From an uncultured delta proteobacterium (lineage in GTDB: Bacteria; Desulfobacterota; Syntrophia; Syntrophales; Smithellaceae): a DNA stretch of 64,000 bases. Within the stretch, counting starts at the first letter, position 1. Every line of letters begins with the position of its first letter. The notes below the pieces were generated by a model, which worked only from the letters and a program-made list of their open reading frames with translations, made no database searches and was not told where the DNA came from. Of this stretch, positions 42-48,708 are shown piece after piece. The stretch spans positions 449,009 through 513,008 of the forward strand of contig CAVPJZ010000001.1 of the NCBI GenBank assembly GCA_963705555.1, given 5' to 3'. A program made the position numbers and the translations under genes.

Positions 42-1262
42 CTATTGGTTCTTTATTTTTTCCCGAAGGTAACAACGGGGGTCTTCCGCCAGGTAGTCTC
101 CGCTATAAGCTAAGGCGCGTCCGCGGCAGCCGCCGCAAACAGTTTTGTAATTACATTTACCACAGATGCCTTTGAGTCTATCTTCACGCCGCCGCAAATT
201 TTGGAATACCGGCGTTTCCGTATATATTTGCTGGAAACTCGTATCCCTGATATTTCCCGCATTGATCTCTACAAAGGGACAGGGCCAGACATCGCCGTTA
301 GCTTTAATGTAAACAAAGCTCCTGCCCGCGGCGCAGCCGTGGAAAAAATTACCGGCAAGCTTAAGTAGCAGGCCTTCGCGGATACCGTTTTTTTCCAAAA
401 TATAAGACCAATACTGAGGTCCGGCGACTGGCTCGATAATGGTTTTGGCGATTTTTTGTTTATCGGCAATAAGTTCGCTTAAATATTTATTGGCACTTTT
501 CTTCAAAGTGGCTTTTTCTATTTTTTCCCCGCGGCCGACAGCGACAAGTTGATACATCAGCATAATGCCGGCGCCGCAGCCATCGGCAAAATCAATGAGC
601 TCAGGTAAGTGCGGCATATTGTATTCCATCGCCGTTGTATTGATCTGTAAAAGGATGCCCGCTTTCTTTGTGGCCTCAATTGCCTTAAGCGCTAGATCAA
701 AAGCGCCGGGCTTATTTCGTACCATATCATGAATATCGGGATTGGCGGCGTCAATGCTGATGGCATTGCAAACAACACCGTGATCCTTTAATTTAAAAGC
801 CATTTCTTCGTCAATTAGTGTGCCGTTGGTGGCAATTATGTTGGCAAGCCCGGCCTGCTGGGAATGTTTGAGCAGAGTGAAGATATCCGGCCGCACAAGC
901 GGTTCGCCTCCTGTAAAAATCAAGGTGCGGAATTCGCTGTTGTCCGCCAGCATATCAATGAGTCTTTTTCCTTCATCGGTGGTAAGCTCATTCGAAGCTG
1001 CCTTGCCGCTTACCGCATGACAGTGAATACATTTTAAATTACAGGCGCCGGTCACTTCCCAGACCGGATGTCCCGGGTAACCGATGCAGCCCATGCCTAA
1101 GGAACCGTTGGCTACGGGTATGGATGGGAAACCGTGCCGGAAAAGCCATCCCGGGAAATGCTGCCAGCGATTTAAGTATCCCATGAGCAAAACGCTGCCC
1201 ATTTGTCTGAACAAAAGGGAAGGGGGGTTATAAAACGGTTTCACTTTCTTTTTCGTTTGCAT
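42..1262 (-). CDS. radical SAM protein with SPASM-like C-terminal cysteine cluster
   Basis: Intact 406-aa ORF. It has the CNLKCIHC (CxxxCxxC) radical-SAM cluster motif and a C-terminal CGKCNYKTVCGGCRGRA Cys-rich motif. Confidence 0.85.
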   Translation of the reverse strand: MQTKKKVKPFYNPPSLLFRQMGSVLLMGYLNRWQHFPGWLFRHGFPSIPVANGSLGMGCIGYPGHPVWEVTGACNLKCIHCHAVSGKAASNELTTDEGKRLIDMLADNSEFRTLIFTGGEPLVRPDIFTLLKHSQQAGLANIIATNGTLIDEEMAFKLKDHGVVCNAISIDAANPDIHDMVRNKPGAFDLALKAIEATKKAGILLQINTTAMEYNMPHLPELIDFADGCGAGIMLMYQLVAVGRGEKIEKATLKKSANKYLSELIADKQKIAKTIIEPVAGPQYWSYILEKNGIREGLLLKLAGNFFHGCAAGRSFVYIKANGDVWPCPFVEINAGNIRDTSFQQIYTETPVFQNLRRREDRLKGICGKCNYKTVCGGCRGRALAYSGDYLAEDPRCYLREKIKNQ

Positions 1263-1271
1263 AATTAAAAT

Positions 1272-2193
1272 TTAAAGGTAGGCCAGGATGTAAGCAAGAG
1301 ATGTTCCTAAGTTGACGACGATGTTCAAGCCGCAGAGGATTTCCAATATTTTGTGGTTTTCATATTTTGCACGCAGCATCAGGACAATTATAAATAAGGA
1401 AATAATCAAGAAAGGCAGATAAAAATAAACGACCTTAAAAGGAATGCCCCATAATGGTGACATGAGCATAGTCAGGGAAGTCAATAAAGAAAAAATCACA
1501 TAAAGTGCCATCCCTTTTTGCTTTCCGAGCCGATACAGTAAATTCTTTTTATCCGTAGCCTTGTCCGCTTCGTAATCCGGAAATTCATTGAGCAGGATTA
1601 CATTAAAAATCGAAAGGCCGATGGGTATAGCCAGCCAATGAACTAGACGGGTGAATCGTGCCGGTCTGTATATAATAGGCTGAGGCGACAGTCAGCCAGC
1701 CATAACAAAAACCGATAAAAATTTCACCGAAGCCGCGTTGGACAAGGCGTATCGGTTTAGTGGAATAGAAGAAACCGGAAAAAGCTCCGAGGAAACCTAA
1801 GACCAATGTATAGGGACCGGTTTTTAAAACAAATTGCAGGATTATTCCGATAATTCCGGCAAGGATCAATGTGACAATGCTTGTCCAAAGGGGGACCAGC
1901 GGTGATATCTTCCCGGCTGGAAGCACGCGCGAGCCGCCGGAAAACAGGTTTTCGTGTAAACGGTTCGACAGAATGTCTCCTTCGTAATCAAAATATTCGC
2001 CGGACTGGTAAGTGGAAATCATAATCAAGATAACCCCGGAAATACCGAGAAGAAAAACTTCCATGCTTATGGTAGAATTAATTTTGTATGCCAGAAATGT
2101 TCCCAATATAAAGGGAAGGATGCCAACAGTGTGAAAAGGCGGCCGGGAGAGACCGATCCATGCTTTTATTTTTTCTATATTCGAATTTTGCAT
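1272..2193 (-). pseudogene. UbiA-family prenyltransferase, interrupted by one frameshift near 1600-1640
   Basis: The 196-aa and 79-aa ORFs are both polytopic membrane segments. An Asp-rich motif (YQSGEYFDYEGD) lies in the first ORF. The gap 1512-1602 translates in a third frame to NEFPDYEADKATDKKNLLYRLGKQKG, a second Asp-rich motif. Confidence 0.7.
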
Positions 2194-2604
2194 AAATTAC
2201 CTACGTTTGTTGTGGCGGTTTACTAACATAAAGGGTCATCTTTGTCAAAGGGCTATGGCATTTTCTAACGATATAAGTAAGAGGTAAAAGTGGCGGCACA
2301 AAGTCGTGGAGAGTAAATCACTTTTTTCTTGCTTGTTGATTTTTTTTGTGTTAGGCGTAGCGCGAGTTTGCAAGAAAGACACCTTCCCGAATGAATAACC
2401 ATGCAGGCTGGAAAAAAGTTAAGTATTTGCGGATTAGACAGATGGGCGATGGATTCAGGGCTTACTTTGAGGTTTAACGTCATTTATTATCAGGGCGATA
2501 CTGGTTTCAATAGCAATTTAATATCGGAGGTTTAGCTGTAACCGTAAAAAGCGGTTGATAATAATCTATGTATATTTAATTTTATGAAAGGAGGCATTTA
2601 AAAA

Positions 2605-2877
2605 ATGACAAAGGCAGATTTGGTCGGTGTTATGGCAAAAGAAGCGGATATTACCAAAGCGGCAGCATCATTGGCTCTGGACGCATACGTTGACGCAGTC
2701 ACGAAAGAACTGAAGAAGGGCGGTAGGATTGGTCTGGTAGGATTTGGTACGTTCTCCGTGGCCAAAAGGAAGGCGAGAGAAGGCAGGAATCCTCAAACCG
2801 GTAAAGCCATTAAAATTCCCGCGAAGAAAGTTGTAAAATTCAAGGCCGGTAAGGAACTGGCTGACAAATGTAAATAA
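2605..2877 (+). CDS. hup: HU-family nucleoid DNA-binding protein
   Basis: 90-aa ORF with GFGTFSV..R.AREGRNPQTGKAIKIPA. An AGGAGG-like SD (aaaggagg) lies upstream. Confidence 0.93.
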   Translation: MTKADLVGVMAKEADITKAAASLALDAYVDAVTKELKKGGRIGLVGFGTFSVAKRKAREGRNPQTGKAIKIPAKKVVKFKAGKELADKCK

Positions 2878-2903
2878 TAAATTATTAAGTCATTATTCAA
2901 CTG

Positions 2904-2941
2904 AGGCCTCCGCATTATTCAAAGAAACAATCGGAGGCCTC
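2904..2941 (+). terminator. 10-bp perfect hairpin downstream of hup (GAGGCCTCCG / CGGAGGCCTC, 18-nt loop), with no U-tract
   Basis: Inverted repeat read directly from the sequence, 27 nt after the hup stop. Confidence 0.4.
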
Positions 2942-2950
2942 CGTGCATTA

Positions 2951-3225
2951 GTGAGATTCAAATTTTAATGAGACTCAAATTTCACAAACGTAGTGAGTCC
3001 CAGATTTTAGAAGCGGAGCGCACTGAAATCTGTTGGACGAACTATCCCGCAAAGCGGTGGCAGTGCAGCGAAATTTGCAAGCCGAATTATCCCACATGCG
3101 AAGTCATGTGGGACTGTATAGCAAGTCGAATCAATGAAACTGAGATATTGCAAGCGCAGCACAGCAATATATCTTAGCTGAATTGATCCCACCAGAGGTG
3201 GGGCTATCCCGCGAACTAGGGATAG
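2951..3225 (+). repeat. mosaic hairpin-module array A (about 8 modules)
   Basis: Type I modules at 2992-3048 and 3133-3190: flank (A/G)TGA(A/G)..C, stem, loop AAGCGGAGCGCA or CAAGCGCAGCACAG, stem, then ..GAA.TATCCC. ATCCC-type hairpins at 3090-3113, 3186-3200 and 3205-3224. Confidence 0.85.
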
Positions 3226-3268
3226 AATGTCCGTGAATTAGGATAATATGTAATAAGGAGTTTTCGTT

Positions 3269-4258
3269 TTGGCACTCAAAAGAATTCTCAGCGGGATGCG
3301 ACCTACCGGAAAACTGCATTTAGGCAATTTACACGGGGCATTAGGAAACTGGATTGAATTGCAGGAAAGCGGCAAATATGATTGTTTTTATTTTGTTGCC
3401 GATTGGCATGCCTTTACCAGCGAATACAGTTCTACGGAAGGAATCAAGGATAACATAATCAGCATGGTGATTGACTGGCTCAGCGTCGGTCTTGATCCGG
3501 AAAAAAGCACTCTCTTTGTGCAATCGGCGATTAAAGAACATGCCGAACTTTTCCTTTTGCTTTCCATGATTACTCCGCTGGCCTGGCTGGAGCGTAATCC
3601 TACCTATAAGGAAATGAAAGCCGAACTGGCCAATAAGGATTTATCCACTTTTGGTTTTTTGGGTTATCCTGTGCTGCAGGCCGCCGACATTATCATGTAC
3701 AAAGCTTATGGTGTTCCTGTCGGCGTTGACCAGCTACCCCATGTAGAACTTACCCGCGAGATTGCCCGTCGTTTTAATTTTCTTTATAAAGAAATATTTC
3801 CGATTCCGGAACCGCTTTTAACCAGTGTGCCTAAGCTTGCTGGGTATTGACGGAAGAAAAATGAGCAAGTCCTACGATAATTCGATTTATATCAGTGATC
3901 GCGGCAAAGAGTTGCAGCAGAAAATTTCTTCCATGTTTACTGATCCGCAGCGGATGAGAAAAAGCGATCCGGGAAATCCTGAAATATGCAATGTCTTCAC
4001 TTTTCATGGATTATATTCGCACCAGGAACTGTGAAAGAAATTGATGCTGCCTGCCGGAAAGCGGCTATCGGTTGCACTGATTGCAAAAAAATGCTGGCCC
4101 GGCGTATTGCCGAAGCAATGAAGCCAGTTCACGAACGTATGGATTATTATGTAAATCATCTGGATGAAATTAACTTGATCATAGAAGAAGGTAACAAAAA
4201 AGCAACAAAAATAGCGCGTCAAACAATGGAAGAAGTTCGTGCTGCGGTTAAAATCTGA
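3269..4258 (+). pseudogene. trpS: tryptophan--tRNA ligase, split into 3 ORFs by 2 frame breaks (about 3835 and 4010)
   Basis: GKLHLGN (HIGH-type) motif in ORF 3269-3850 and KMSKS in ORF 3825-4034. The C-terminal part is in ORF 3986-4258. TTG start with an AAGGAG SD. Confidence 0.9.
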
Positions 4259-6832: not shown

Positions 6833-7426
6833 TTAACCCAGATTTCCATTAACAAAATCCCAGTTAATCAAATTTTGAATAACAGCAGAAAGATAATCCG
6901 GTCTTCTGTTTTGATAATCCAGATAATAAGCATGTTCCCAGACATCAATGGTCAAGAGCGGTTTTTGACCATGGGCAAGAGGAGTATCGGCATTAGCTGT
7001 TTTTGTTATTTTTAACTGGTTTCCCTCCAAAACCAGCCAGGCCCAGCCGCTGCCAAACTGAGTGACTCCGGCGTTTTTCAATTCTTCGGCAAATTTGTCA
7101 TAGCTTCCCCAAGTAGCGTTTATCTTGGCCGCAATTGCTCCGGTAGGTGTGCCTCCTCCCGATTTTTTCAGGCATTGCCAGTAGAAAGAATGATTCCAAA
7201 CTTGGGCGGCGTTGTTGAAGATACCGGCTTTAGCTGAATCTTTAGCGGCAATTTTAATAATTTCTTCCAGTGATTTTTCCTCAAGATCGGTGCCGGCAAT
7301 TAATTTGTTTAAATTATCCACATAAGCTTTGTGATGTTTGCCGTAGTGGAAATCCAAAGTATTGGCGCTGATATAGGGCGCCAGTGCGTCTTTCGCGTAA
7401 GGTAGTTCCGGTAATTTTATAGCCAT
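6833..7426 (-). CDS. sodB: Fe-type superoxide dismutase
   Basis: 197 aa with HYGKHH, FNNAAQVWNHSFYW and DVWEHAYYLDYQNRRPDY. Confidence 0.93.
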   Translation of the reverse strand: MAIKLPELPYAKDALAPYISANTLDFHYGKHHKAYVDNLNKLIAGTDLEEKSLEEIIKIAAKDSAKAGIFNNAAQVWNHSFYWQCLKKSGGGTPTGAIAAKINATWGSYDKFAEELKNAGVTQFGSGWAWLVLEGNQLKITKTANADTPLAHGQKPLLTIDVWEHAYYLDYQNRRPDYLSAVIQNLINWDFVNGNLG

Positions 7427-7481
7427 ATTTTGTTCTCCTTTCTTTATTATTCAAATATAAGGCGCAATTTACCGAAATATC

Positions 7482-7645
7482 AATGAGGCTCAAATTAAAG
7501 GCTCATCTCGGAGAGCCTTTAAGTCAAGCCGAATTGATCAAGTCCAGGCTTCAATAAGCTCAAAGCTTATTTCGGATCATACCTAGGTTTATAGTTGAAT
7601 TTGTTAGCTGATTGTCAGATTGCATCGGGATGAGGCTCAAATATT
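7482..7645 (+). repeat. degenerate hairpin-module array G
   Basis: AATGAGGCTC + TTAAAGGCTC / GAGAGCCTTTAA hairpin + GTCAAGCCGAATTGATC. Followed by partial modules (GTTAGCTGATT, GATGAGGCTCAAATATT). Confidence 0.6.
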
Positions 7646-7655
7646 GTATTGATGG

Positions 7656-8591
7656 TTAATGCCTTATACGTGAATCAGCAGCGTTATGCCCCATTTTATA
7701 TTTGAGCCAATTTATATAAAAGAAAGTGAAAATAGCGAAAACTAATGACGGAAGAGCTGCTTCCCGACTAAAGATAATAAGCGCTATACCCCCGGAAAGC
7801 CCGTAGTTTTTCATGGTTCCCAGAAGAAGAAGAGAAGTGATCTTCTTTTCAGCGACATGAAAAAGCTCTCCAGTTTTCTCAATTGCCAGAGCGAACAAAA
7901 AAATACCTATGACAGCAATGAAAGAGATAACATAAAGGTCGTCTGGCCAATTCAAAAGCATATCCCTTCCGTTTGCTGTTAGGGAATAAAAGACAATAAA
8001 TAGACAGCAATCGGTTATTATATTTTCATATGGTTCAATGATTTTATCCCATTCTTTTTCCACAACGAGTCGGGAAAGTCCAAGCGGCAGTATAATTAAT
8101 TCGAGCTATCAGTAAAATAATATTCCAATAATTCAAGGGAATATCTTTAAGAAATCCTAAACCTATCAATGGTATAATTAACAATAGCGCCCAAATACGC
8201 TCCCGCAAATCCCGCGTATGTACGAAGTAGCATCAGCCCGCAATGAATTACCCAAGGATAATATGTCCACTGCAGGCGGTATTGCGGCAATCAGCACCAT
8301 GCCAATCCAAAGGGCTTCGTCGAGAATAAAAAACATGCCGGTCAAAATTATAAAATTTCCCCAGAGAAGATAGTTCATGACATTGCCGCTGATCGCCGAA
8401 CCGAAAAGCTTTTTGGGGTGGCGGAAAAAACCGCGCGGTATTTTCAAAGGTGCAATTGTCAGAATGATCGTCAACGCGGGCAAAGTCAGGGCGGCGGCAA
8501 CTACATTTGCCTGAGGTAAAACAAAACCGCAAAGTACAGACGCGAGAAAAACTATATTGGAGCGGGAAACAAGATATTTGAAGCGAGCCAT
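7656..8591 (-). pseudogene. polytopic permease (AEC / bile-acid:Na+ symporter-like), about 2 frame breaks
   Basis: ORFs 8178-8630 (likely start MARFKYL at 8591 with a GAGG SD) and 7656-8063 are both multi-TM. The linking region 8064-8177 is readable in other frames. Confidence 0.45.
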
Positions 8592-14241: not shown

Positions 14242-14940
14242 ATGAAAAATAATTGTTTGTTTGTCCTAAAGAAAATTGCAGTGCTTGTTTTGATAGCTTT
14301 TGGTTTGGGCATATCAGGTTGTGCTACTGCCGCCAGCCTTTACAGCGTCGATATGCGGTATACGGCGGCCGAGGCCATTATCCCGGCATATTTAAAAGCC
14401 GATGAAAAAACACGTGACGCTATTATTAATGTAGCGGAATTCATCGACACACGCCGGTTGGATGATAAAAAAATAATCGGTCGAGTGATAGAGAGAGACG
14501 GCACGAAACCTCTTGTATTCCCCAAGTATGTTATACCGACCAAAGCCGTCGCTAACGGCATTAAAGAATATTTGAAAAAAGCCGGTTATAAAGTTGCCGA
14601 TAAGCTTGTGCGATGGGATTTAAAAGAAGAAACCATGCCGAAGGGGTCCGGCAAAGTTCTTATAGGCGGGAACATTGAAGAGCTCGAAGTATCTTGCGAG
14701 CGCGGTGTTTTTTCTAATTCTTATAAAATCAGTTTGAAGTTGACCATTATTTTTGCGGATTTGGCCAAAGGCAAGATATTATATAAAAGCAAAGTGGAAA
14801 GCGCATCTTCCAGAGATGATATTTCCTTTTCTGAAGAGTGGCTCGGAAAACAGGTCAGTACTGCTCTGGGCGATGCCATTGAAAAAGTATTTCAAGAAAA
14901 GGCTGTAGCGGAAAAGATAAAAGAAGCCATCACCCAATAA
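14242..14940 (+). CDS. lipoprotein of unknown function
   Basis: Signal peptide with lipobox LGISGC. AAGGAG SD 7 nt upstream of the ATG at 14242. Confidence 0.7.
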   Translation: MKNNCLFVLKKIAVLVLIAFGLGISGCATAASLYSVDMRYTAAEAIIPAYLKADEKTRDAIINVAEFIDTRRLDDKKIIGRVIERDGTKPLVFPKYVIPTKAVANGIKEYLKKAGYKVADKLVRWDLKEETMPKGSGKVLIGGNIEELEVSCERGVFSNSYKISLKLTIIFADLAKGKILYKSKVESASSRDDISFSEEWLGKQVSTALGDAIEKVFQEKAVAEKIKEAITQ

Positions 14941-14949
14941 ATTTACCCC

Positions 14950-15349
14950 GTCAATGACACTCGCTAAGAACGAGCGTAGCGAAGTAGTGAGTCCCAAATT
15001 TAAGAAACTTAGAGCACTGAAATTTGCAGGACGAACTATCCCAGGAACGAAGAGACGCGGGATTTGAAGCGTAAGTGGAATTAATGAGACTCATGTTTTA
15101 GAAACGCAGTGAACTAAAACATGTAAGCCGAATTAATCCCGCCCAAGCGGAGGGTATCGCAGATACCCGTGGTCAATGAAACTCAGATATTTCAAGCGCA
15201 GCACAGAAATATCTGTTAGTTGTAATGAGACTAAAACTTCAAAAGCAAAGCGCATTGAAGTTTTTTAGTCGAATTATCCAATAGCCGATGGCTATTGGAA
15301 ATTATCCCACCACAGGTGGGGCTGATCCCGATAGCGAAGCGTATCGGGG
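14950..15349 (+). repeat. mosaic hairpin-module array B (about 10 modules)
   Basis: Leader GTCAATGACACTCGCT. Type I modules at 14987-15042, 15083-15140, 15175-15223 and 15224-15280. ATCC(C) hairpins follow: CCAATAGCC/GGCTATTGG, CCCACC/GGTGGG, CCCGATA/TATCGGG. Confidence 0.88.
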
Positions 15350-15372
15350 TTGACACCTTTAAGTAACGCAAC

Positions 15373-15903
15373 ATGAACTACGTTTACGTTTTAAAAATAG
15401 AGCGCCGTCTCTCGTTTCCCGCAATATTACTGCTTTTGCTGATGACAGCCTTATCCATGATGCCTGGTAATGTTTGGGGAGATGAAATTTACACGCACAT
15501 GGATAAGGATGGCACTATAGTTATAACAAACAGACCTCCTCCTCAAGAAAATATTAAGCCCAATCCCCAGAATAATAATTCGTATCAAGATTCAACCTCA
15601 GAGGATCGCTTGCATTGGGGAAGGGACAATGCATTAATTGATGAACAGAACAGAGATAAAAGTGGAAAACGTAAAAAAGTTAATGATGGTAGAGGTATTG
15701 ACGCCGGTAGATATAATGTGAAAATTAAGAAAATCGGCAGTAATTTATATCAGGATACTGATACACGCATTATTATCAAAACCAGCGATTGTGCTGAGCT
15801 GGCAGGCAAGGATGGATCTTTATTGGATTGGACTGGTGTTTCCGGCGAACTCTATTTCAAAAATACGAACAAGTCATGTATAGTTATAAAAGTTTATAAA
15901 TAA
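15373..15903 (+). CDS. secreted protein, DUF4124-like N-terminus
   Basis: Signal peptide ..LLLLLMTALSMMPGNVWG, then IYTHMDKDGTIVITNRPP and a low-complexity linker. The start codon is uncertain. Confidence 0.55.
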   Translation: MNYVYVLKIERRLSFPAILLLLLMTALSMMPGNVWGDEIYTHMDKDGTIVITNRPPPQENIKPNPQNNNSYQDSTSEDRLHWGRDNALIDEQNRDKSGKRKKVNDGRGIDAGRYNVKIKKIGSNLYQDTDTRIIIKTSDCAELAGKDGSLLDWTGVSGELYFKNTNKSCIVIKVYK

Positions 15904-16111
15904 ATATGGAATAACTCATTGAAAAAGAACGGGGATGGGAAAGCGGTATTTGAAAAATCGCTTAAAACGCTTCCTGTCTCTAACGGGGTGAATGAGGTAA
16001 CCGCAAAAGATGAAACCGAATGGCAAGCCAACGGGATAAATCTCTAACGGGGTAACGGGACGAGGGAATAATTGATTAATACGACTCTTTGTTATTGAAA
16101 GGAGGTTAGTG

Positions 16112-16600
16112 ATGAAGATTAACGAATATGTGAAGAACACGATAGTCGGGCTGGGCACGCTGGCCTTAGTCAGCGGCTGCGCATCTTATGGCAAGATCAT
16201 CAAAAGTGAGGAAGTGAAGAGCATCCCGAACAAAAAGTTTGAAAAAATTATAGCGCTGAGATTGCCGGAAGGTGAACCGGTTAATCCAAATGCCGGATTT
16301 GTCTATGTCTTACGGGAAGGAAAAATCAGTACAGACTACCCCCGCGAGGAGTTCTTAAAAAACCTTGATGGCTTGCTCAAACACGAGCAGTCAAGCAGGA
16401 CGTACCACATGGGCAAATTCATCATCAAGGACAGCGAGGGCAAGGTGCACGGCTACTATGAAATGCTGCCCAATTACAGAGCAGTCATTTGGGAACGCAA
16501 GGATGATATCCTGTTGCAGGTCGTAATTCCCTATAATCTAACGGACCACGATGGAATTGATCGCAGTGGGAAGATGGGCGGAGGGCATGGTGGTAAATGA
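16112..16600 (+). CDS. lipoprotein of unknown function
   Basis: Lipobox LALVSGC. GGAGG SD 6 nt upstream of the ATG at 16112. Glycine-rich C-terminus. Confidence 0.65.
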   Translation: MKINEYVKNTIVGLGTLALVSGCASYGKIIKSEEVKSIPNKKFEKIIALRLPEGEPVNPNAGFVYVLREGKISTDYPREEFLKNLDGLLKHEQSSRTYHMGKFIIKDSEGKVHGYYEMLPNYRAVIWERKDDILLQVVIPYNLTDHDGIDRSGKMGGGHGGK

Positions 16601-16623
16601 ACCTGCGGGTAACGAGGGATTCA

Positions 16624-16705
16624 TCTCTAATGGGAATTAGAATGTTGGATCATATCATCATCGGCGATGGCGAGTATTATAGCTTTGTCAATGACACTCG
16701 CTGAT
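16624..16705 (+). pseudogene. radC: internally deleted radC remnant (5-prime ISNG codons joined to the last about 22 codons)
   Basis: Translates to [26 protein letters not shown]. It is about 85% identical at nt level to 17832-17890 of the full radC. Confidence 0.75.
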
Positions 16706-16958
16706 AATGAGACCCAAGCTTCAGGAACAAAGTGCATAACCTAAAGGTCACTGCCGCTGAAACTTGCGGGACGTAATGAGACTAAAACTTCAAAAGCAAA
16801 GCGCATTGAAGTTTTTTAGCCGAATGAATGAAACTCAAATACTACAAACGAAGTGTTGTAGTATTTGTTAGCTGAATTCATCCTGCAGCCAAAGGCTGTC
16901 AGGGCTATCCAATAGCTAAAGGTTATTGGAAACTATCCCGGGCGCGATGCGCCGTGGG
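16687..16958 (+). repeat. mosaic hairpin-module array D (about 7 modules)
   Basis: Same leader GTCAATGACACTCGCT. Type I modules at 16706-16774, 16775-16826 (1 mismatch to 15222-15275) and 16827-16884 (11-bp stem). ATCC hairpins follow. Confidence 0.88.
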
Positions 16959-16990
16959 AAACAAGGGCGCAAGCGAAAATACAGAGCTTT

Positions 16991-17101
16991 ATGATAAATA
17001 ATTCATACGCATGGATGGGCGGACAGTGGTGGATTTGGGCGGTGCTCGCCGTACTGCTGGTGGTCGCTGTCGTGATTAAAAAGCTGTTCAGAAGGAAATA
17101 A
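16991..17101 (+). CDS. hypothetical 36-aa single-TM peptide (MINNSYAWMGGQWWIWAVLAVLLVVAVVIKKLFRRK)
   Basis: Short ORF with a hydrophobic core and a basic tail. No clear SD. Confidence 0.25.
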   Translation: MINNSYAWMGGQWWIWAVLAVLLVVAVVIKKLFRRK

Positions 17102-17197
17102 AAAGACGATGCCTGGAAAAAATAAATCAAAGGGGATTTATCCCGTTAGAGATAAGCGGGTTAATGCAGTATGTTTAAGTATCAATGAGCACCTAAA

Positions 17198-17938
17198 ATG
17201 ACAAATAAACCAAAAGAAAAGAAAATCTCTAACGGGATAAAATCCTGGCCCAAAGATGACCGGCCGAGGGAGAAGCTGCTCAAAAAAGGCGCGGGAGCGC
17301 TGAGCAATTCCGAGCTTTTAGCGATACAGCTGCGCACCGGCGTCCAGGGCAATAGCGCCATTGATTTGGCCAGAAAGATGCTGGCTAAGTTTGGTACTTT
17401 CCGCAACATGAGCCACTCTGATATCCGCGATTGGAAAGAATTTAAGGGTTTGGGCCCGGCCAAAATCGCGCAAATTAAAGCCGCCCTCGAAATCGGTCGG
17501 CGTTTCCGCGAAGACGAAGTCGTAAGCGCCAAGCAAAAAATTGCCACTGCCGGGGATGTTGTCGATATCATCATGCCGCAAATGCGCGACCTCAAGACTG
17601 AAGTTTTTAAAGTTGTCTATCTCAACAGCAACAACGGAATCATCGATATTGCCGATGCCGCCGTAGGCACTGTCAATCAGGCCGCGCCGATTGTGCGGGA
17701 AATTATCCATGCGGCATTACAGAAATTTGCCGCCTCTATCATCTGTGTTCACAATCACCCCAGCGCGAATATTACACCCAGCCCGGAAGATAAAAAAATT
17801 ACGGCCGAGCTGACAGCCGCATGCAATGTAATGGGAATCAGGATGCTGGATCATATCATCATCGGCGACGGGAATTACTTTAGCTTTGCGGATGCAGGGA
17901 ATAATGGAGTAGCATGGCAATTAATAATTAGAGGAAGA
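17198..17938 (+). CDS. radC: RadC-like JAB/MPN domain protein, with no in-frame stop before hsdR (read-through or indel artefact)
   Basis: HhH region [31 protein letters not shown] motif [19 protein letters not shown]. Both alternative frames have stops at 17902-17912. Confidence 0.85.
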
Positions 17939-20342
17939 ATGACAAATAAAAAAGAATTATCCGAACGAGACATTTGTACACAGTTTATTCTGCCTGCGTT
18001 GGTTAAGGCCGGATGGGATGTGGAAAAGCAAATCCGCGAGGAAGTCTTTTTTACTGATGGTCGTATTTTTGTTAAAGGTAATAGAACGGCTCGTGGTGAA
18101 CGCAAACGCGCTGATTTTATTCTCTATCTTAAACCCAATATCCCAATAGCAGTTATTGAAGCTAAAGATAACAATCATTCCGTAGGCGCAGGATTGCAGC
18201 AGGCGCTGAAATATGCTGGTACACTCGATATTCCAATCGCATTCAGTTCCAATGGCGATGGCTTTATCATGCATGATTGTTCGGGCTATTCTCATCCGAT
18301 CGAACAGGATTTATCATTGGACACTTTTCCATCGCCAGCCGCTCTTTGGGCGATCTATAAAAAATATAAGGGAATTGAAACTCCTGAACAGGAAGAAATA
18401 GCTTCTTTTGATTATTTTTTTGACGGTTCTGGTCGAGCGCCGCGTTACTATCAGCAAATTGCCATCAATAGAACCGTAGAAGCTATTGCCCAAGGCCAGA
18501 ATCGCATTTTGCTTGTTATGGCGACGGGTACTGGAAAAACATATACAGCTTTTCAGATCATTTACCGTCTTTGGAAAAATGGGCGGAAGAAAAGAATTTT
18601 ATTTTTAGCAGATCGCAATGTTCTTATTGATCAAACCAAGCGCAATGATTTTAAACATTTTAAAGACCGCATGACAGTTATCAGAAAAAAGAAGATCGAT
18701 AAAGCATTTGAAATATATCTTGCGCTATATCAGGGGCTCACAAACTACAATGAAGATAAGGACGCTTATCGGGAATTCAGCCGGGATTTCTTTGATCTGA
18801 TAATCGTGGATGAGTGTCATCGTGGAAGTGCGGATGCCGACAGTGCGTGGCGGGAGATTCTCACCTATTTCAGTTCGGCTACCCAGATCGGACTTACTGC
18901 TACACCAAGAGAAACGAAAGAAATATCCAATATCGAATATTTCGGCGAACCGATTTACACCTATACTCTCAAGCAGGGTATTGAAGACGGATTTTTAGCT
19001 CCCTACAAAGTTATTCGTGTCGGATTAAACGTTGATCTTGAAGGCTGGCGACCTGAAGAAGGGAAAAAGGACAAAGACGGTCATGAAATTGAAGATCGTA
19101 TTTATAACACCAAAGATTTTGATAAAAACTTGGTTATAGATGAAAGAACACAATTAGTTGCCAAAAAAGTTTCTGAATATCTAAGGAAAACAAACCGCTT
19201 TGATAAAACTATCATATTCTGTGTGGACATAGAGCACGCGGAGCGCATGCGTAAGGCTTTGGCGATTGAGAATCAAGACCTAGTGTTGGAAAATCACAAA
19301 TATATTATGCGTATTACCGGCGATGATGATGAGGGCAAGCGGGAGGTGGATAATTTCATCAATCCCGAAGAACGCTATCCTGTTATTGCTACCACTTCAA
19401 AACTAATGACTACCGGAGTTGACGCGCAAACCTGCAAGCTGATTGTTCTTGATTCAAATATTAAATCCATGACTGAATTCAAACAGATTATCGGTCGCGG
19501 GACGCGCATCAATGAAGAGTATGGCAAAACCTATTTTGCCATCATGGACTTTCGCAATGTTACCGATCTTTTTGCTGATCCGGCGTTTGACGGTGATCCG
19601 GTAATGATTAAGCAAGTAAAAGGCGAAGAAGAATTAACCGACAAAGATATTTATCCTGAAGAAGATCAGGAAATTATTGATCCTGAAACCGGTACGATGG
19701 TTGATTTCTCTATAGGTGAACGTAAGGTACCCGACAACGCCGGAGATAATTACAGGCGGTGAAATTATTTCTGAGCCTCGTCCCAAAGTCTATGTTGCTG
19801 GTGTTGATGTATCCATCCTTAATGAACGGGTTCAGCATCTTGACGGCAACGGGAAGCTTATTACCGAAACACTAAAAGATTATACAAAGAAAGGTATTTT
19901 ACAGGAATATCGTACACTTGATGAATTTCTTAAACGTTGGAATAGTACTAGAAAGAAGAAAGCCATTATTGAAGAACTGGAATCACACGGCATAATTCTG
20001 GAAAACCTTCTGGACGAAGTAAAAAAAGATTTGGATATATTTGATCTGATTTGCCATATCGCCTGGGACATGCCCGCGCTGACGCGTAAAGAAAGAGCGG
20101 AGAAGGTGAGAAAGCGCAACTACTTTACAAAATATGGTGAGAAAGCGCGCATTGTTATCGAGGCTCTTTTAGATAAATATGCCGACGAAGGTATTGAAAA
20201 TATCGAAGACCTTGCTGTCTTGCGTATTGAACCATTCAATAAAATCGGAACACCGGCGGAAATCATTCAGATATTCGGCGGCAGAGATAAATATCTATAC
20301 GTTATCGAAGAACTGGAACACGAACTCTACGCAGCAGCTTAA
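17939..20342 (+). pseudogene. hsdR: type I restriction enzyme R subunit (EcoEI-like C-terminal domain), one frame break near 19730
   Basis: N-terminal nuclease ADFILYL...IAVIEAKD. Helicase motif I MATGTGKT and motif [11 protein letters not shown]. The C-terminal part continues in ORF 19716-20342. Confidence 0.9.
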
Positions 20343-20351
20343 GGACAATCA

Positions 20352-21810
20352 ATGAAAAATATCGGCAATATTATTAAAACACTACAAAATATCATGCGCA
20401 AAGACCCTGGCGTTTCCGGTGATGCCCAGCGCATCGAGCAATTGGGCTGGATGATTACTTTAAAAATTTTGGATGATAAAGATAAGGAACTTGAAGCTGA
20501 TTGATGAAAAGTATAAATCACCGATACCCGAGTTTTCTGCAATGGCGCAATTGGGCTGGTGATGATGAAGGGATGACCGGAGAGGATTTGAAAAAATTTA
20601 TTGATGGCAAACTTATTCCCAAGCTTAAAAATCTTGATGTGAGTTCTGGTAATAAACGTGCGCTCATTATCCGTGAAATATTTGACGGCACCAATAACTA
20701 CATGAAAAACGGCACAATCATTCGTCAGGTGCTGAATGAACTAAACAAGATTGATTTTAATAGTTCGGAAGACCGCCACGTTTTCGGTGATATTTACGAA
20801 ACGATCTTGCGCGACCTGCAAAGCGCTGGTAATTATGGCGAATTCTACACACCCCGTGCGTTGACCGAGTTTATGACCGAAATGGTTAATCCGCGTCTGG
20901 GTGAAAAAGTGCTTGATCCGGCCTGCGGTACAGGTGGCTTTTTAACCAGCGCCATTGAAAATATCCGCAAGCAGGATGTTAAAGGTGTTGAAGATCTCAA
21001 AGTACTTGGAAAAAACCATTCACGGCATGGAATTAAAACCGCTGCCGTTTATGCTTTGTGTTACCAATCTGATTTTGCATGATATAGAAGTTCCTAATGT
21101 TGATTATACCGACAGTTTGAATCGTGAATATACATCCATCGGACAAAAAGATCGGGTGGATGTAATTCTGGCCAATCCGCCGTTTGGTGCATCGGTTACC
21201 GATGGAGTGGAAACCAATTTCCCGCTGAATTTCCGGACAACGGAAAGCGCTGATCTGTTTTTGATGCTGATGATGCGCTATCTCAAAGACGGAGGCCGCG
21301 CCGGTATTGTTCTGCCTGATGGTTCGCTTACTGGCGATGGCGTAAAACAGCGCATCCGCCAGCACTTTCTGGAAAACTGCAATCTACATACAATTGTTCG
21401 GCTTGCCGAATTCGGTTTTTCAACCTTATGCCAGCGTTGCCACCAATCTGCTTTTCTTTGAGAAAGGAAAACCGACAAAAGAAATTTGGTATTGGGAGCA
21501 TAAACTGCCGGAAGGGGTGAAAGCCTACAACAAAACAAAGCCGATTCAGAAAAAGTGAATTTGATAAGTCTGAAAAAATGGTGGAAGAAACGCAAAGAAA
21601 ATGAACAGGCGTGGAAAGTCTCAATCGATACGATTATTGCAGGAACGGTTACAACCTTGACATTAAAAATCCCCATACACCGGAAGTAACACACGAATAT
21701 ACCAGCACTGAGCTTGTGAAGCTATGCTTCATGATTCGTTTAGAAAGAGTGATGAACTCTTGGAGAAATTGAAGAAGGAGCTTAGCGAATGGCTGAATGG
21801 TACCAATTGA
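20352..21810 (+). pseudogene. hsdM: type I R-M N6-adenine DNA methyltransferase subunit, about 6 frame breaks
   Basis: SAM motif LDPACGTGGFL and catalytic ANPPFG. Fragments lie in ORFs 20501-21082 and 20955-21461 and in further frames to 21810. Confidence 0.88.
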
Positions 21811-23133
21811 CGAACTTTTTGATTTTGAAAAAGGTTCAGTGCAAAGTTCAAAGTGCACTGCCTGGCAAATATACTTTTATTACTGCTGCTGAAGAATGGA
21901 AAACGCATCAAGCATATACTCATGATTGCTGAAGCTTTGATATTTGCAATGGCAGCTTCCGGTTCGTTTGGCAGAACACATTACATAAAAGGCAAATTCA
22001 TTTCCAGTGATTTTTGTTTTATTCTAACGCCCAAGAAAGGGTTAGCAGGACTTGATTTAACTTTCTATTACAGACTCTTTAATTTTCTCCGATCAGATAT
22101 TGTAAAAAAAACAGCAACCGGAACTTCAAAGAATTGGCAATCAATCAGACAACTTTTGGAGCATATAAACTTCCATATTTTGACTTACGATCATCAGTTG
22201 ATTTTCAGAGATAAAATAGAAAATATTAAATCAACATTAGGAAAGTTGATTCATCTTTAGCGGTACTTGGAACTGAACAAGTTATCATTATCCTACAAAT
22301 AACTTCGTCCGGCAATCTATATTGCAGGAAGCCATTGAAGGAAAGCTTACTGGCGACTGGCGAAAGCAAAATCCGAAATTAATCAGCGGTGAAAATCACG
22401 CTTCAAAATTGCTTGAAAAAATCAAAGCCGAAAAAGAACGGTTGATCAAAGAAGGGAAGATAAAGAAAGAAAAACCGCTTGCACCAATTAACTGATGAAG
22501 AAAAGACTTTTGATTGCCCGAAGGATTGGGTGTGGTGCAGGTTGGGAGAAATTGTTTTGGCATTGAATATGGATCAAGTGCGAACTCTAAATAAGGATGG
22601 CAAAGGTCCGTATCTTGAATGGGAAATTTACAAAATGGTCAAATCTTGATTGGGAGGATTTATGTCTATACTAGCAATGATACGGAAGAGAAAAGCACTT
22701 ACTTGAGAATAATGAATCGGACAGATGTTCAGCCATAGAAGGTGATTTATTAGTTCGTGATAGGTGGCAAAGCGGGTCGTTCCATATGAGAATGATGATA
22801 TAATATTTATGTCTGAGTCATATCCGTGAGGTTCCATATTGCGAGATTAATATCACATCTATAATATATACATATTTTCAAATAATTCATCATTTCACAG
22901 ATGAAATACAATAAAGTAAAAGCAGGTGTCTGCGGTCATATCTAACATTATATGCAACAAAACTTAGAGATTATAGATATCCCCTCGCGCCAATTACCGA
23001 GCAACAAGCCATTGTCGAGCGGGTGGATAAACTTATGGCCATGATTGACGAACTGGAAAAACAAGTCACCGAACGCAAAGACAAATCCGAAAGACTGATG
23101 CAGTCGGTATTACGCGAGGCATTTATGCAATGA
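21789..23133 (+). pseudogene. hsdS: type I R-M specificity subunit, heavily disrupted (>=6 breaks, worst at 22540-22990)
   Basis: TRD1 fragment ALIFAMAASGSFGRTHYIKGKFISSDFCFILTPK. Central helix [21 protein letters not shown]. Conserved C-terminal helix PLAPITEQQAIVERVDKLMAMIDELEKQV. Confidence 0.8.
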
Positions 23134-24635: not shown

Positions 24636-24647
24636 AAGGGATTTTTT

Positions 24648-26444: not shown

Positions 26445-26450
26445 TAGTGA

Positions 26451-26495
26451 AATAATCGGGGACGGTTCTATTTAGATTACTTATCAGTCCTGGCT
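26451..26495 (+). repeat. 45-nt element AATAATCGGGGACGGTTCTATTTAGATTACTTATCAGTCCTGGCT (copy a of 4)
   Basis: About 38/46 identity to 32875-32918. The core GNTTCTATTTA also occurs at 34987-35014 and 38439-38463. Confidence 0.7.
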
Positions 26496-26500
26496 GTGCT

Positions 26501-26687
26501 GTGGTGGAAAGTAGGGAATTGAGTCCGCAATCCCGATTTGCTACGCTTACGGGATCAATTCGACTAAAAAACTTTAATGCGTTTTGTGGGATAGCTCGCT
26601 GTGTTCATTATCCCACGTCGCTTTGCTTCTGGGATAATTCGTCCAACAAATTTCAGTGCGCTGCGCTTCTGAAATTTGGGACTCATT
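26501..26687 (-). repeat. mosaic hairpin-module array C (inverted orientation)
   Basis: The reverse complement reads AATGAGTCC-CAAATTTCAG-AAGCGCAGCGCA-CTGAAATTTG-TTGGACGAATTATCCC. ATCCC hairpins and a half module (TTAAAGTTTTTTAGTCGAATTGATCCC) follow. Confidence 0.85.
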
Positions 26688-26701
26688 AAAAGGAGGTTAC
26701 C

Positions 26702-27367: not shown

Positions 27368-27553
27368 AGAACAAATTTTGGATTTGTCATTGAAGGGACG
27401 CGCATCTCGTGAAGCATGAAGCGGACTTGGCATATCGATATTTCATGGGGAAAATTGAGACAGGTAAAATTAAAGCGCCGAGGTGGATACTTAATCTATT
27501 TTGCTTGCAAAATATTACAAAGTATATATAATTAACGTAGGTGATAATTATAT

Positions 27554-28806: not shown

Positions 28807-28844
28807 AAAAATGAATTGGAGAATTAAACGAAAAGGAGATTGCT

Positions 28845-31495: not shown

Positions 31496-31620
31496 GGTTC
31501 CCCCCTGAGAGATGAAATTGTCTCCTGATTTGTATAGTAGCATAACATCATTTTTTGAGAAACGGAAATTTAAAGATGACGGCGTGATTTTTGCCGCGGC
31601 GCTGCGATTCTTTTTTCATT

Positions 31621-31817
31621 GTGAAACTCCAATTTCCATAACGAAGTGTATAACCTAAAGGTCACACGTGGAAATTGGTAAGTTGAACAATCCCGCACAG
31701 CGGAGGGTAGTGAAACTCAAATTTTAAGAACGCAGTGAATTAAAAATTGTTAGCTGAACTATCCCGTATAAGCAGGGATATGATACCACGCAGCTTGCTT
31801 TGGGGTTCATACCCGGG
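31621..31817 (+). repeat. mosaic hairpin-module array E
   Basis: Type I modules at 31621-31693 (9-bp stem, loop carrying ATAACCTAAAGGTCAC) and 31709-31764. ATCCC hairpins. The terminal segment TATGATACCACGCAG...TTTGGGGTTCATACCCG is shared with array F. Confidence 0.85.
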
Positions 31818-31826
31818 ATCCAGTTC

Positions 31827-32878: not shown

Positions 32879-32918
32879 TCAGAAACGATTCTATTTAAAT
32901 TCCTGATCAGTCCTAGCT
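32875..32918 (+). repeat. 45-nt element copy c (ATAATCAGAAACGATTCTATTTAAATTCCTGATCAGTCCTAGCT)
   Basis: Starts within the panE stop codon. Aligns to 26451-26495. Confidence 0.7.
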
Positions 32919-43022: not shown

Positions 43023-43079
43023 TAAGGCGAAAAATGGTCGGTGTTTTCATCAAGTCGAGCACTACTTTGAAGTTTATTC

Positions 43080-43324
43080 GTGAAACTCCAATTCTAATGA
43101 AACTCAGATATTACAAACGCAGTGCAGCAATATCTGTAAGTTGAATTATCCCACGTGCGAAGCTAAGTGGGATATTGTAATGAGACGCAAGCTAGAAACA
43201 GCGTATAACCTAAAGGTCACACGTCGGAATTGGCAAGTTGAACAATCCCGTATAAGCAGGGGTATGATACATCGCAGTAAGCTTTGGAATCGGTTTCCAA
43301 AGCTTAATTTGGGGTTCATACCCG
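43080..43324 (+). repeat. mosaic hairpin-module array F
   Basis: Type I module at 43097-43152. ATCCCAC...GTGGGAT hairpin. A chimeric module carries ATAACCTAAAGGTCAC. An 11-bp hairpin AAGCTTTGGAA/TTCCAAAGCTT. Terminal TTTGGGGTTCATACCCG overlaps the glpC stop. Confidence 0.85.
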
Positions 43325-44509
43325 TGGCTTCTGGTCTGTGATTCCCAGTGATTCGCTGACGATTTCAGCCGGATCGAGGGCAGTCAGGCCGGAGAGCCCG
43401 CCCAATTGCATCCGGCACGAACCGCAATCCGCGACAATCGCTTCCGCTCCGGTTTTCCTGATGAGTGAGACAGCCCGGTTTCCTAGCTGAACTGCGGTGG
43501 ACTCATTAGTCTTTTTAAAACCGTAACTGCCGTTGAGCCCGCAGCAGGTATCATCAAGAATCTCATATTCCAGTCCGGGGATCATCGCCATAATTTTTGT
43601 TGCCGGATAGCCGATGCCCAGCGCCCTGAGGTGACACGGGATGTGATAAGCAAGTTTGCGCCGCACTTCCCTGAATTGCGGATCGATGTGTCCTTCATCA
43701 ATTAGTTTGACGATATATTCGTAGAGGTCGTAGCTGTTTTCGGCGATCTTTTTTCCCTGCGGAATTTCCAGAATACCCGGATAATCATGCAAGAGACAAA
43801 GGCCGCAGGATGTGCATGTATAGACAACATCATACCCCGCATCAATGTAGTCGGACAACGAAGCGGCATTCTTTTCGGCAAAGGAGCGGGCCAGCGCCAA
43901 ATTTCCGTTACCCAGCGCCGGAAGACCACAGCACCACTGAGGCGGCAATACAACATCTATATTGAATGATGTGAGCAGTTGAATGATTTTTCTGCCGATA
44001 TCGGGTCGATAAAAATTGATAAAGCACCCGTAAAAAAAGGCTACTTTTCTTGTCGATTTGCTCAGATTTTTCTTTTCGCTATGCAGTGTCCGGAAACGAA
44101 ATTTCGGGAAAGGTATATAAGTTGCCAAGCCCATAGCCCGGAATATCTTTTTTCCGATTGCGGTTGAGGCAATCGTGTTGGCGATAGGCGCGGTTAAAGA
44201 ACCAAGAGCGCTTAAGTAGTAGTTATTGGCGAAAAGCAGGTAGGCCAGCGTTCGGGGGTGCTGAAGACCATATCTTTGCTGTGCCTTGAGAATTATCTGG
44301 GCCGGTTCCACGCCGCATGGGCAGGCCATCTCGCAGCGCTTGCACTGACTGCATAGCATCACCCATTTATCCACGGCTTTTTCTCTTTCCATCCGGAAAC
44401 GCTGGGCATCGGGCCCTGATTGTTTCGGCCCGGGAAAATCAGGGTTGACCCGAAGGACGGGGCAATTCTCGACACAGATAGTGCAACGTATGCAGTGTTC
44501 GTAATTCAT
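43316..44509 (-). CDS. glpC: anaerobic glycerol-3-phosphate dehydrogenase subunit C
   Basis: N-terminal ferredoxin motifs CIRCTICVENCP and CSQCKRCEMACP, plus two CCG-type Cys-rich repeats. The likely start MNYEHC at 44509 overlaps the glpB stop. Confidence 0.88.
   Translation of the reverse strand: MNYEHCIRCTICVENCPVLRVNPDFPGPKQSGPDAQRFRMEREKAVDKWVMLCSQCKRCEMACPCGVEPAQIILKAQQRYGLQHPRTLAYLLFANNYYLSALGSLTAPIANTIASTAIGKKIFRAMGLATYIPFPKFRFRTLHSEKKNLSKSTRKVAFFYGCFINFYRPDIGRKIIQLLTSFNIDVVLPPQWCCGLPALGNGNLALARSFAEKNAASLSDYIDAGYDVVYTCTSCGLCLLHDYPGILEIPQGKKIAENSYDLYEYIVKLIDEGHIDPQFREVRRKLAYHIPCHLRALGIGYPATKIMAMIPGLEYEILDDTCCGLNGSYGFKKTNESTAVQLGNRAVSLIRKTGAEAIVADCGSCRMQLGGLSGLTALDPAEIVSESLGITDQKPRV

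Positions 44510-47207: not shown

Positions 47208-48708
<1,501 letters not shown>

Follow-up and report, generated by a model that had tools for sequence, protein, structure and literature searches.

Introduction

Repetitive extragenic palindromic (REP) sequences, like BIMEs and REPINs, are small, gene-less hairpin repeats of intergenic regions that occur in many copies and in mosaic arrays. REP super-families share a common tag, with stems that differ between families and sub-families (PMC3733652), and REPs tied to class 2.6 Y1 transposases show a stem, an internal loop and a GC-GAA-GC tip (PMC6006769 Table S1). Here, seven intergenic arrays of hairpin modules were investigated in a 64,000-nt stretch of DNA from an uncultured delta proteobacterium of the Smithellaceae (assembly GCA_963705555.1, contig CAVPJZ010000001.1, positions 449,009 to 513,008 of the forward strand), referred to below as the window. 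The modules are consecutive domains of one ~80-250-nt element with sharp ends, of which the 5′ domain is a rod-like hairpin of ~59 nt (H1) and the next a smaller hairpin (H2), and the arrays are very probably mobile hairpin DNA. All seven loci, with the modules described in an initial annotation made from the window alone, were present on direct reading of the sequence, and their intergenic position was supported. Pairing of the module flanks through tandem G.A mismatches, nested insertions, a ~20-nt repeat in the hairpin loops (the rider) and a spread over several phyla had been missed by that annotation.

A pattern scan of a species-representative genome collection returned at least 119 loci, each taken as 8 kb and labelled with an L-number. 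[quoted passage not shown] As with REPs, several subfamilies occur per genome, stem differences are compensatory and a motif at the foot is conserved (PMC3733652); no terminal inverted repeats were seen, the single clean insertion site carries no duplication, and some REPs have the same succession of stem, internal loop and GC-GNA-GC tip (PMC6006769). In contrast, a REP palindrome measures 20-40 nt (at most ~65 nt), whereas H1 measures 59 nt and always has additional hairpins downstream; the arrays are head-to-tail and nested, where REPINs are dominated by inverted doublets; the core is shared across phyla, where REPs are described as species-specific; and no RAYT gene or REPtron (a cognate Y1 transposase gene with the repeats on either side) was found in the window or among the 119 8-kb loci listed. 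The initial annotation had presented conserved flanks with variable stems as the opposite of REPs, a view that is not supported, since stems are kept within subfamilies across genomes and published REP super-families vary in the same way (PMC3733652). Of the three identities it had offered, REP-like DNA elements fit best.

The ends of IS200/IS605 elements and of PATE-type MITEs, their gene-less derivatives, are similar in having different subterminal hairpins at the two ends and a strand-specific structure. Insertion without duplication, seen in the single clean case, is a further likeness, and an element whose own end restores the target would be predicted to insert in tandem or nested fashion. 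They differ in that no tnpA or tnpB was seen, that a fixed 4-5-nt left target is not established (AAATT occurs once and CCAATT many times, and other flanks differ), and that H1 starts 0-3 nt from the junction rather than ~20 nt inside. Classical MITEs differ as well, since no terminal inverted repeats were visible by eye and no duplication was present at the clean site. Pneumococcal BOX elements and enterobacterial BIMEs are likewise modular, with few types of hairpin box in variable number, but their sequences are unrelated, they are not nested in loops and their taxonomic range is narrow. Rfam gave no window match at the gathering threshold and nothing relevant at E<=10 in 14900-17000, nor any match on the element in 17 loci from other phyla, and two REP catalogues (Di Nocera 2013; Quentin 2018 Table S1) held no matching family; the match to an Rfam family or a described REP that might have overturned the initial annotation was not found in these searches. 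A literature search by sequence string returned no paper with the conserved flanks, and one on Smithella and Syntrophus repeats returned nothing relevant.

Structure and covariation of the element

H1 corresponds to the type I module of the initial annotation. Its outer helix (NNA(A/G)T / A(T/C)TNN) leads to a core of tandem G.A mismatches, 5′-TGA / GAA-3′, in a Y-GA-R context on both strands, which was present in 131 of 135 distinct copies. Four covarying base pairs lie inside the core (GACT/AGTC, AACT/AGTT, GTCC/GGAC, GACC/GGTC or CACT/AGTG), followed inward by a 2-nt bulge on the 3′ strand and a subfamily-specific stem of ~10 bp. The tip comprises an internal loop of purines (RA / GMA), then a ministem of 2 bp (GC/GC or AC/GT) and a triloop; among the 135 copies the apical loop was GNA, closed by C-G, in 85 and ANA in 22. 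The commonest starts in the same set were TTAA, GTAA and TCAA, bases that pair with the 3′ side, and by eye the flanks read AATGARACT...AGYYGAAT. The 5′ and 3′ flanks described earlier are indeed conserved but, since they pair together, form part of the hairpin.

In a MAFFT alignment, 95.1% of stem cells were paired, against 77% in shuffled controls and 26-38% with the partner slid, and double changes were seen at 14 of 20 stem pairs. A model-fitted alignment of the 135 distinct copies, which leans towards the model, gave 94.4% paired cells and double changes at 19 of the 20 pairs. Over both alignments, column shuffles left 72-77% paired and sliding the partner 23-42%, so that the test of stem complementarity proposed with the initial annotation came out positive (94-95% against 72-77%). 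A pattern for the flanks matched the window five times and 100 dinucleotide shuffles not once. Fold energies compared with shuffles gave z = -5.4 (plus strand) and -4.9 (minus strand) for 2951-3225 folded as DNA and z = -7.1 for 14950-15349 folded as RNA; no shuffle matched the real fold energy of the tested arrays.

Discrete stem subfamilies are common to many genomes (CAGATATTAC..., CAAACTTTAA..., CCAATTCCG..., CAAATTTCAG...), and a subfamily with a second tandem G.A (CGCTGAAAAC...) also recurs across genomes. Because stems are kept within these recurring subfamilies, conserved flanks with variable stems is a pattern seen between subfamilies: stems do differ there, but they are not freely variable and recur, sometimes base for base, in other genomes.

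A covariance model of H1 was built from 39 aligned copies, from the window and other genomes, on a hand-written structure. With filters off, it found 13 matches at E<0.01 in the 64 kb (12 on the plus strand and one on the minus strand), all within the seven arrays, and no significant match in the window outside them, confirming H1 as a family. Four additional copies, interrupted or nested, were missed by the model (2968-3092, 16707-16775, 43080-43250 and 43180-43225). H2, the former type II module, is a small ATCC(C)-hairpin-(G)GGAT structure, of which ~20 were counted by eye in the seven loci. Since 13 + 4 copies of H1 and ~20 of H2 were counted, the earlier figure of about 35 modules is roughly correct.

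H2 lies directly downstream of H1, and the two module types, although real as hairpins, are not independent units. In full copies H2 is followed by AGGGTAT.ATACCC, sometimes by GCAG-CTTG-CTGC and CCAAAG-CTTG-CTTTGG, and then by GGGTTCATACCC-GTGAT(T). The shared 3′ terminus, ...ATACCCGTGAT(T), is found in window arrays 3, 6 and 7 (15163, 31809 and 43318), and beyond it copies at different loci have no common sequence. Judged by eye, not by a repeat search, the two ends of the element, (A)ATGAGACT... and ...ATACCCGTGATT, have no inverted-repeat relationship. A copy from Bacteroidia (L101) has the same long tail as Smithella copies, with compensatory changes; its CTTG hairpin reads CCAGGG-CTTG-CCCTGG as compared with CCAAAG-CTTG-CTTTGG in Smithella. 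Negativicutes and Bacteroidales copies have other, larger hairpins after H1 and a sharp left border.

This architecture also invites comparison with integron attC sites: in both, it seems to be a folded single strand that is recognised, one combining paired boxes with a mismatch inside the helix, bulged bases and a tip that varies. H1 could accordingly be read as an attC-type folded recombination site for a tyrosine recombinase, and the arrays as clusters of sites lacking cassettes. The outer helix would parallel the R box, the G.A pairs the unpaired spacer, the 4 bp the L box and the bulge the extrahelical bases; structure rather than sequence sets the architecture, with a variable terminal domain, conservation extends to the 2-nt bulge and the internal mismatch, the arrays run head to tail, and the positions at which one module replaces another are fixed. 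We nevertheless consider this reading very unlikely. The consensus RYYYAAC...GTTRRRY was absent by eye, a judgement made with no pattern search; modules abut, with no cassette open reading frames (ORFs) between them; a search of the window and of the surroundings of copies revealed no integrase; and the element has a multi-hairpin 3′ tail of its own and also inserts at ordinary intergenic sites.

Three further resemblances were examined and set aside. The UGA...GAA arrangement resembles a hammerhead core, but by eye the equivalents of C3 and G5 are wrong for a self-cleaving ribozyme. A k-turn was ruled out by eye because the bulge is 4 bp from the G.A pairs, and a likeness to a tRNA T-arm (TCGAAT) was judged coincidental.

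Evidence for mobility

That the arrays are mobile hairpin DNA is supported by comparisons between related genomes. L008 carries a 178-nt insert comprising two H1+H2 units and a 3′ terminus, and the orthologous site in L052 is empty (...TCAAATT/AGGCAAA..., the slash marking the insertion point), with intact flanks and no target duplication. The consensus ends are compatible with an ATT duplication or target of 3 bp, for which this single clean site gives no proof. The 5′ flanks of insertions read AAATT once, at the clean site, and CCAATT in at least 12 nested cases, and are otherwise variable. L008, L052 and L107 each have a different H1 directly after the same terminator T-run, and many arrays start right after a terminator-like hairpin and T-run or abut a ribosome-binding site.

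Array content was not conserved between relatives with 87-94% identical flanks. Window positions 71-3868 are 91-94% identical to L023 (Smithellaceae SPRUCE 595), yet the orthologous array in L023 contains only two modules, one of a different subfamily; relative to it, one module is swapped at 2951-3225 and ~150 nt are added. Different subfamilies likewise occupy the space between the same flanks at the orthologous positions of L019 and L033. Within the window, a complete H1+H2 unit (2990-3060) lies inside the GNA minihairpin of the module at 2968-3092, and many loci and genomes have the stub GTGAAACTCCAATT with another module behind it. Identical copies occur at unlinked loci or on different contigs of one genome (L094, L091, L074 and L083/L102/L110). 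Strain comparison by exact protein look-up (HU, SOD, nitroreductase, TrkA-like) yielded no usable contigs. Arrays that change so fast could serve as strain markers; they can also interrupt assemblies and give rise to spurious ORFs in metagenome-assembled genomes (MAGs) of Smithellaceae and related groups.

Alternatively, the repeats might not transpose at all, and the arrays might grow and change by replication slippage, unequal crossing-over and gene conversion between short conserved motifs. Junctions between modules often fall within shared motifs (e.g. AGTCG/TAATGA and CGAA/TNAATGA, with junctions marked by slashes), modules are swapped between identical flanks, and the rider is tandemly triplicated in L080. 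Such processes do not account for copies at many unlinked intergenic sites, for the clean de novo insertion in L008 relative to L052 at a site with no earlier copy, for identical copies on different contigs of one genome, or for a family present in several phyla, and they are extremely unlikely to be the whole explanation.

The seven arrays of the window

The modules of each array, with H1 copies identified by the covariance model or by inspection, were as follows.

Array 1, 2951..3225, plus strand: between the HU gene and the TrpRS gene; opens with a 5′ H1 stub (2951-2967).
Array 1, outer H1, 2968-3092: apical GNA minihairpin split by the complete H1+H2 unit 2990-3060.
Array 1, remainder: H2 hairpins, then H1 3131-3189, then two H2 (3186-3222).
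Array 2, 7480..7645, plus strand: degenerate H1 7480-7540 (26.6 bits, E 0.002) and decayed fragments.
Array 3, 14950..15349, plus strand: H1 at 14984-15042, 15081-15139, 15180-15221 and 15222-15280.
Array 3, 3′ terminal hairpin GGGTATCGCAGATACCCGTGGT: ends at ~15173, with the 3′ terminus match at 15163.
Array 3, H2 hairpins: starts at 15038, 15136, 15276, 15304 and 15325.
Array 4, 16687..16958, plus strand: overlaps the last codons of a RadC-like ORF.
Array 4, modules: H1 16707-16775 (rider in loop), H1 16777-16824, H1 16825-16883 and three H2.
Array 5, 26501..26689, minus strand: H1 26631-26689 (74.9 bits), H2 hairpins and half an H1.
Array 6, 31618..31820, plus strand: in a divergent intergenic region; H1 31622-31694 with a rider in its loop.
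Array 6, remainder: H2, H1 31707-31765 and a long 3′ tail ATCCCGTATAAGCAGGG...GCAGCTTGC...GGGGTTCATACCCGGGAT, with the 3′ terminus at 31809.
Array 7, 43077..43328, plus strand: between convergent genes; stub GTGAAACTCCAATT (43080-43093), then H1 43094-43152 (73.5 bits).
Array 7, remainder: H2, a half-module with a rider, the matching 3′ half GGAATTGGCAAGTTGAACAATCCC and a long tail to ATACCCGTGGC, with the 3′ terminus at 43318.

Model scores were 64 bits (2990-3048) and 69.6 bits (3131-3189) for the H1 copies of array 1, 49.6, 75.6, 39.3 and 78.6 bits for those of array 3, 53 and 72.1 bits in array 4, and 28 and 67.2 bits in array 6. The third H1 of array 3 (15180-15221) is truncated and adjoins the next (15222-15280). 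The array 4 module at 16776-16826 has base-identical copies in two other MAGs (L109 and L111), and the split module of array 7 (43080-43250) is an interrupted module of 172 nt. Array 2 is antisense to both its neighbours, an Fe/Mn-SOD gene (6833-7426) and an ORF (7656-8063), since both are on the minus strand; the orthologous spacer in L041 has a different H1 (L041 7163-7232). In array 5 the 5′ end of H1 26631-26689 adjoins the ribosome-binding site of a nitroreductase gene (26702). The inversion that had been reported for this locus (26501-26687) was borne out: it is the sole inverted array, with H1 on the minus strand.

Distribution across phyla

Most loci among the matches listed come from MAGs labelled Smithella, Syntrophaceae or 'delta proteobacterium'. 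H1 was also detected by the covariance model in at least 23 loci labelled Bacteroidota, including the isolates Bizionia arctica and Dokdonia and a single-isolate Aquimarina assembly, and, again among the matches listed, in 8 loci of Omnitrophota, 3 of Negativicutes/Bacillota and 1 of Thermodesulfovibrionia. Pattern matches in Sporomusa rhizae DSM 16652 and Dendrosporobacter fold as hairpins. The element is therefore found in at least four bacterial phyla. Loci labelled Mariniphaga and Buchananbacteria that carry Smithella-type copies may be binning errors. In a viral collection ~7 of 50 pattern matches were real hairpins, and there is therefore no sign of a phage origin; one viral contig (L154) has two copies flanking phage-like genes.

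Several copies have unusual surroundings. In a Bacteroidetes MAG (L091 1-1900) the element is bracketed by runs of the 9-mer CATAAAGTT and runs of CATCCAG. The copy in an Omnitrophota MAG (L093 3100-3500) immediately follows a tRNA gene and adjoins heptamer runs (GCTGAKA), and in L061 the element comes after a truncated 5′ part of a tRNA.

The rider element

The rider consists of TAACCT(A/G)AAGGTCA(C) followed by 3-7 nt, 18-21 nt in all. With one mismatch allowed, 33 candidate matches were found in the Smithella-type loci and the window. Twenty-nine of these are on the presumed strand of the host hairpin and four on the other strand or outside recognisable modules, an assignment that is not a computed orientation. 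Most riders lie directly 3′ of G(C/T)GNA in the apical minihairpin: the empty loop joins CCGAAAGCGAA directly to GCGCAGCGG, and the filled loop has TAACCTAAAGGTCACTATAG between the same two sequences. Three riders were located in the window.

Rider, TAACCTAAAGGTCAC and 3-7 nt, 16737..16757, plus strand: 3′ of GTGCA in the apical loop of H1.
Rider, 31651..31668, plus strand: after GTGTA in an H1 loop.
Rider, 43206..43223, plus strand: after GCGTA in an H1 loop.

The rider occurs as a tandem triplet in L080 (4056-4110) and nested in its own loop in L026 (4476), L037 (3986, 5677) and L062 (7406), with triple nesting in L037. It is dispersed, sits in hairpin contexts and is self-nested, like SDR-type very small mobile elements, which measure about 20-27 nt. 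The SDRs of Nostoc punctiforme are reportedly similar in lying in hairpin contexts, in being self-nested and in occurring in tandem, and SDRs are also said to lie in short tandem repeats, as the main element sometimes does (L091, L093). The hosts differ, being Desulfobacterota, Bacteroidota and others rather than cyanobacteria, and the main element is much larger than an SDR. To our knowledge, very small mobile repeats have so far been reported only in cyanobacteria; the rider would extend this phenomenon to other hosts and, if mobile, would be among the smallest mobile sequences known.

DNA or RNA as the active form

Sheared G.A pairs in a Y-GA-R context and C-GNA-G minihairpins of the d(GCGAAGC) type are exceptionally stable motifs of single-stranded DNA, and GNA triloops are typical of DNA, not of RNA. 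The strand-specific G.A and C-GNA-G motifs, together with insertion into loops and the lack of a duplication, point to a single-stranded DNA form. In 12 of the 13 window copies the structured strand is the G-rich strand, taken as the lagging-strand template. Stem mismatches among 2672 cells comprised 50 G.T and 42 A.C, and therefore no RNA-type excess of wobble pairs; this symmetry resembles the outcome of recent mutation without selection, not the tolerance of wobble pairs that a functional RNA shows. Among the 133 copies with two callable neighbours, 46 were co-directional with them, 41 antisense, 26 in divergent and 20 in convergent regions. The random orientation, the unconserved array content and the G.T/A.C symmetry together speak against both an mRNA element acting in cis and a small RNA under conservation, and make mRNA-end structures and processed small RNAs, the other two identities offered by the initial annotation, a poor fit.

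The same data bear on the broader idea that the arrays are under selection as structured RNAs serving the host (3′-UTR stabilisers, processing sites or small RNAs), with the core as a protein-binding motif. The core is conserved across phyla, stems covary, copies are intergenic and often at gene ends, and RNA folding is predicted to be strong. Besides the random orientation and the lack of a G.U excess, orthologous arrays are wholly different between flanks of 87-94% identity and some sites are empty, truncated and nested copies exist, and no Rfam match was found even at permissive E-values; a host function of this kind therefore seems most improbable.

A DNA element might also spread through an RNA copy, by reverse transcription or by insertion into hairpin loops resembling reverse splicing, a route reportedly proposed for the very small SDR elements of Nostoc by Elhai and colleagues in 2008. 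The strand-specific structure with strong covariation, the covarying G-CTTG-C hairpins of the 3′ tail in Smithella and Bacteroidia, the tiny nested riders that resemble SDRs, the single clean site without duplication and the many copies just downstream of terminators, as with group IIC introns, would all suit such a route. Half of the copies, however, are antisense to the surrounding transcription units, with no evident promoter; G.U is not favoured over A.C, the GNA triloops are DNA-typical, neither the window nor the genes linked to copies yielded a reverse transcriptase, and Rfam gave no match. Movement through RNA is on balance improbable.

Proposed mobilisation and candidate enzyme

The best explanation as a whole, and one on which we are evenly divided, is that the arrays are pile-ups of a non-autonomous, hairpin-only element moving as single-stranded DNA. 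The element would insert without target duplication, and new copies would frequently enter the loop of a hairpin or the position immediately 3′ of one, be it a terminator or an older copy, so that repeated insertion would give head-to-tail and nested arrays with quick turnover. The rider, TAACCTRAAGGTCAC..., would spread similarly, into GNA loops and into itself. A nuclease-transposase of HUH/Y1 type, acting in trans from a gene at another place in the genome, would recognise the folded hairpins and G.A core; by analogy, an enzyme of the RAYT or IS200/IS605 kind may tentatively be put forward as the mobiliser, with somewhat less than even confidence. Structure, covariation, insertion polymorphism, nesting, absence of gene linkage and occurrence in several phyla are established by the data, and the single-stranded intermediate and the enzyme class are inferred.

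The absence of a transposase from the window, claimed in the initial annotation, was supported when 48 ORFs were checked with Pfam: the content is ordinary metabolism and a defence island, with no HUH/Y1 or other transposase, integrase or reverse transcriptase. Since no transposase was found there or beside copies, the element is non-autonomous and its partner, if any, unlinked.

Several observations weigh against mobilisation of single-stranded DNA by such an enzyme. Besides the Pfam result for the window, all-against-all clustering of 1045 ORFs among the 119 loci listed revealed no family that recurs beside copies, and the genes enclosed by inverted H1 pairs are ordinary ones (ArsR in L094, panCD in L054). 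A tblastn search with an IS200 TnpA query found only a truncated IS200 (L090 4290-4543; a 56-aa N-terminal TnpA fragment and an STnc490 left-end RNA), ~150 nt from an Anaerovibrio copy and probably there by coincidence. The tag of REPs, an unpaired GT[AG]G (or CGTC) at the hairpin foot, is present as GT[AG]G at the start of just 4 of 135 copies, the paired TGA/GAA tandem G.A being conserved instead. Just one clean empty site was found; the second candidate (L008 7158) involves an 8-nt replacement. The 12:1 strand bias in the window represents just seven independent loci, and over the 8-kb loci orientation agreed in sign with local GC skew in 99 cases and disagreed in 80, with no clear trend. 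The CTTG-capped hairpins of the 3′ tail would also be good RNA tetraloops, and repair templated within a strand can produce compensatory changes in palindromes in the absence of selection.

The mobilising system itself may be new, although this is a minority possibility. A stronger form, in which the arrays represent a phyla-spanning, structure-defined class of hairpin-only parasites with a tandem sheared G.A signal, an enzyme (of a new HUH clade or another kind) so far connected with no repeat and a ~20-nt hyper-parasite of their own that enters DNA triloops, seems unlikely; it would make the arrays a new transposition system and not one more REP family. If a dedicated enzyme exists, the invariant core with its variable stems would offer a natural set of substrates for studying folded-DNA recognition, and presence in Desulfobacterota, Bacteroidota, Omnitrophota and Negativicutes provides a phylogenetic profile that could identify it.

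Other features of the region and loci

Several genes of the window are each split into two adjacent or overlapping ORFs: TrpRS (3269-4258), N6_Mtase (20501-21461), a carboxyl transferase (35911-37561), an FGGY kinase (47208-48708) and isopropylmalate dehydrogenase (58513-59753). This suggests indel or frameshift errors of a long-read assembly, or possibly pseudogenes, so that part of the stem mismatches located in A/T runs may be artefactual.

Positions 16109-29000 form a low-GC (0.39-0.43) island of defence type. It contains a RadC-like ORF, a fusion of a RadC-JAB domain with a restriction helicase of type I/III (17198-19762) and then EcoEI_R_C, followed by an N6 methylase, an unannotated ORF of 501 aa, GmrSD (24648-26444) and AbiEii (28138-28806). 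Over their last 60 nt, the two RadC domains share 85% identity (16628-16687 and 17829-17888).

An unrelated insertion of ~125 nt with terminal inverted repeats (CGACTTCGAAAAAAGT...ACTTTTTACGAAGTCG) is present at L019 2800-2925 and absent from the orthologous site L033 5993-6022; this conventional MITE is thus present in one and missing from the other of two Syntrophaceae genomes. Two short motifs each occur three times in the window. A 25-nt motif, TAATC....ACGRTTCTATTTARAT (26453-26477, 32876-32900 and 38439-38463), is found at or within ~10 nt of a stop codon in every case (genes ending at 26444, 32878 and 38430). A 37-nt motif, GGGTCAAAYCTTT..TTCTTGAYAAYT, is intergenic at 29386-29422, 35769-35805 and 40592-40628 and, judging from its TTGA(C/T)A-like hexamer, may be a shared promoter or operator.

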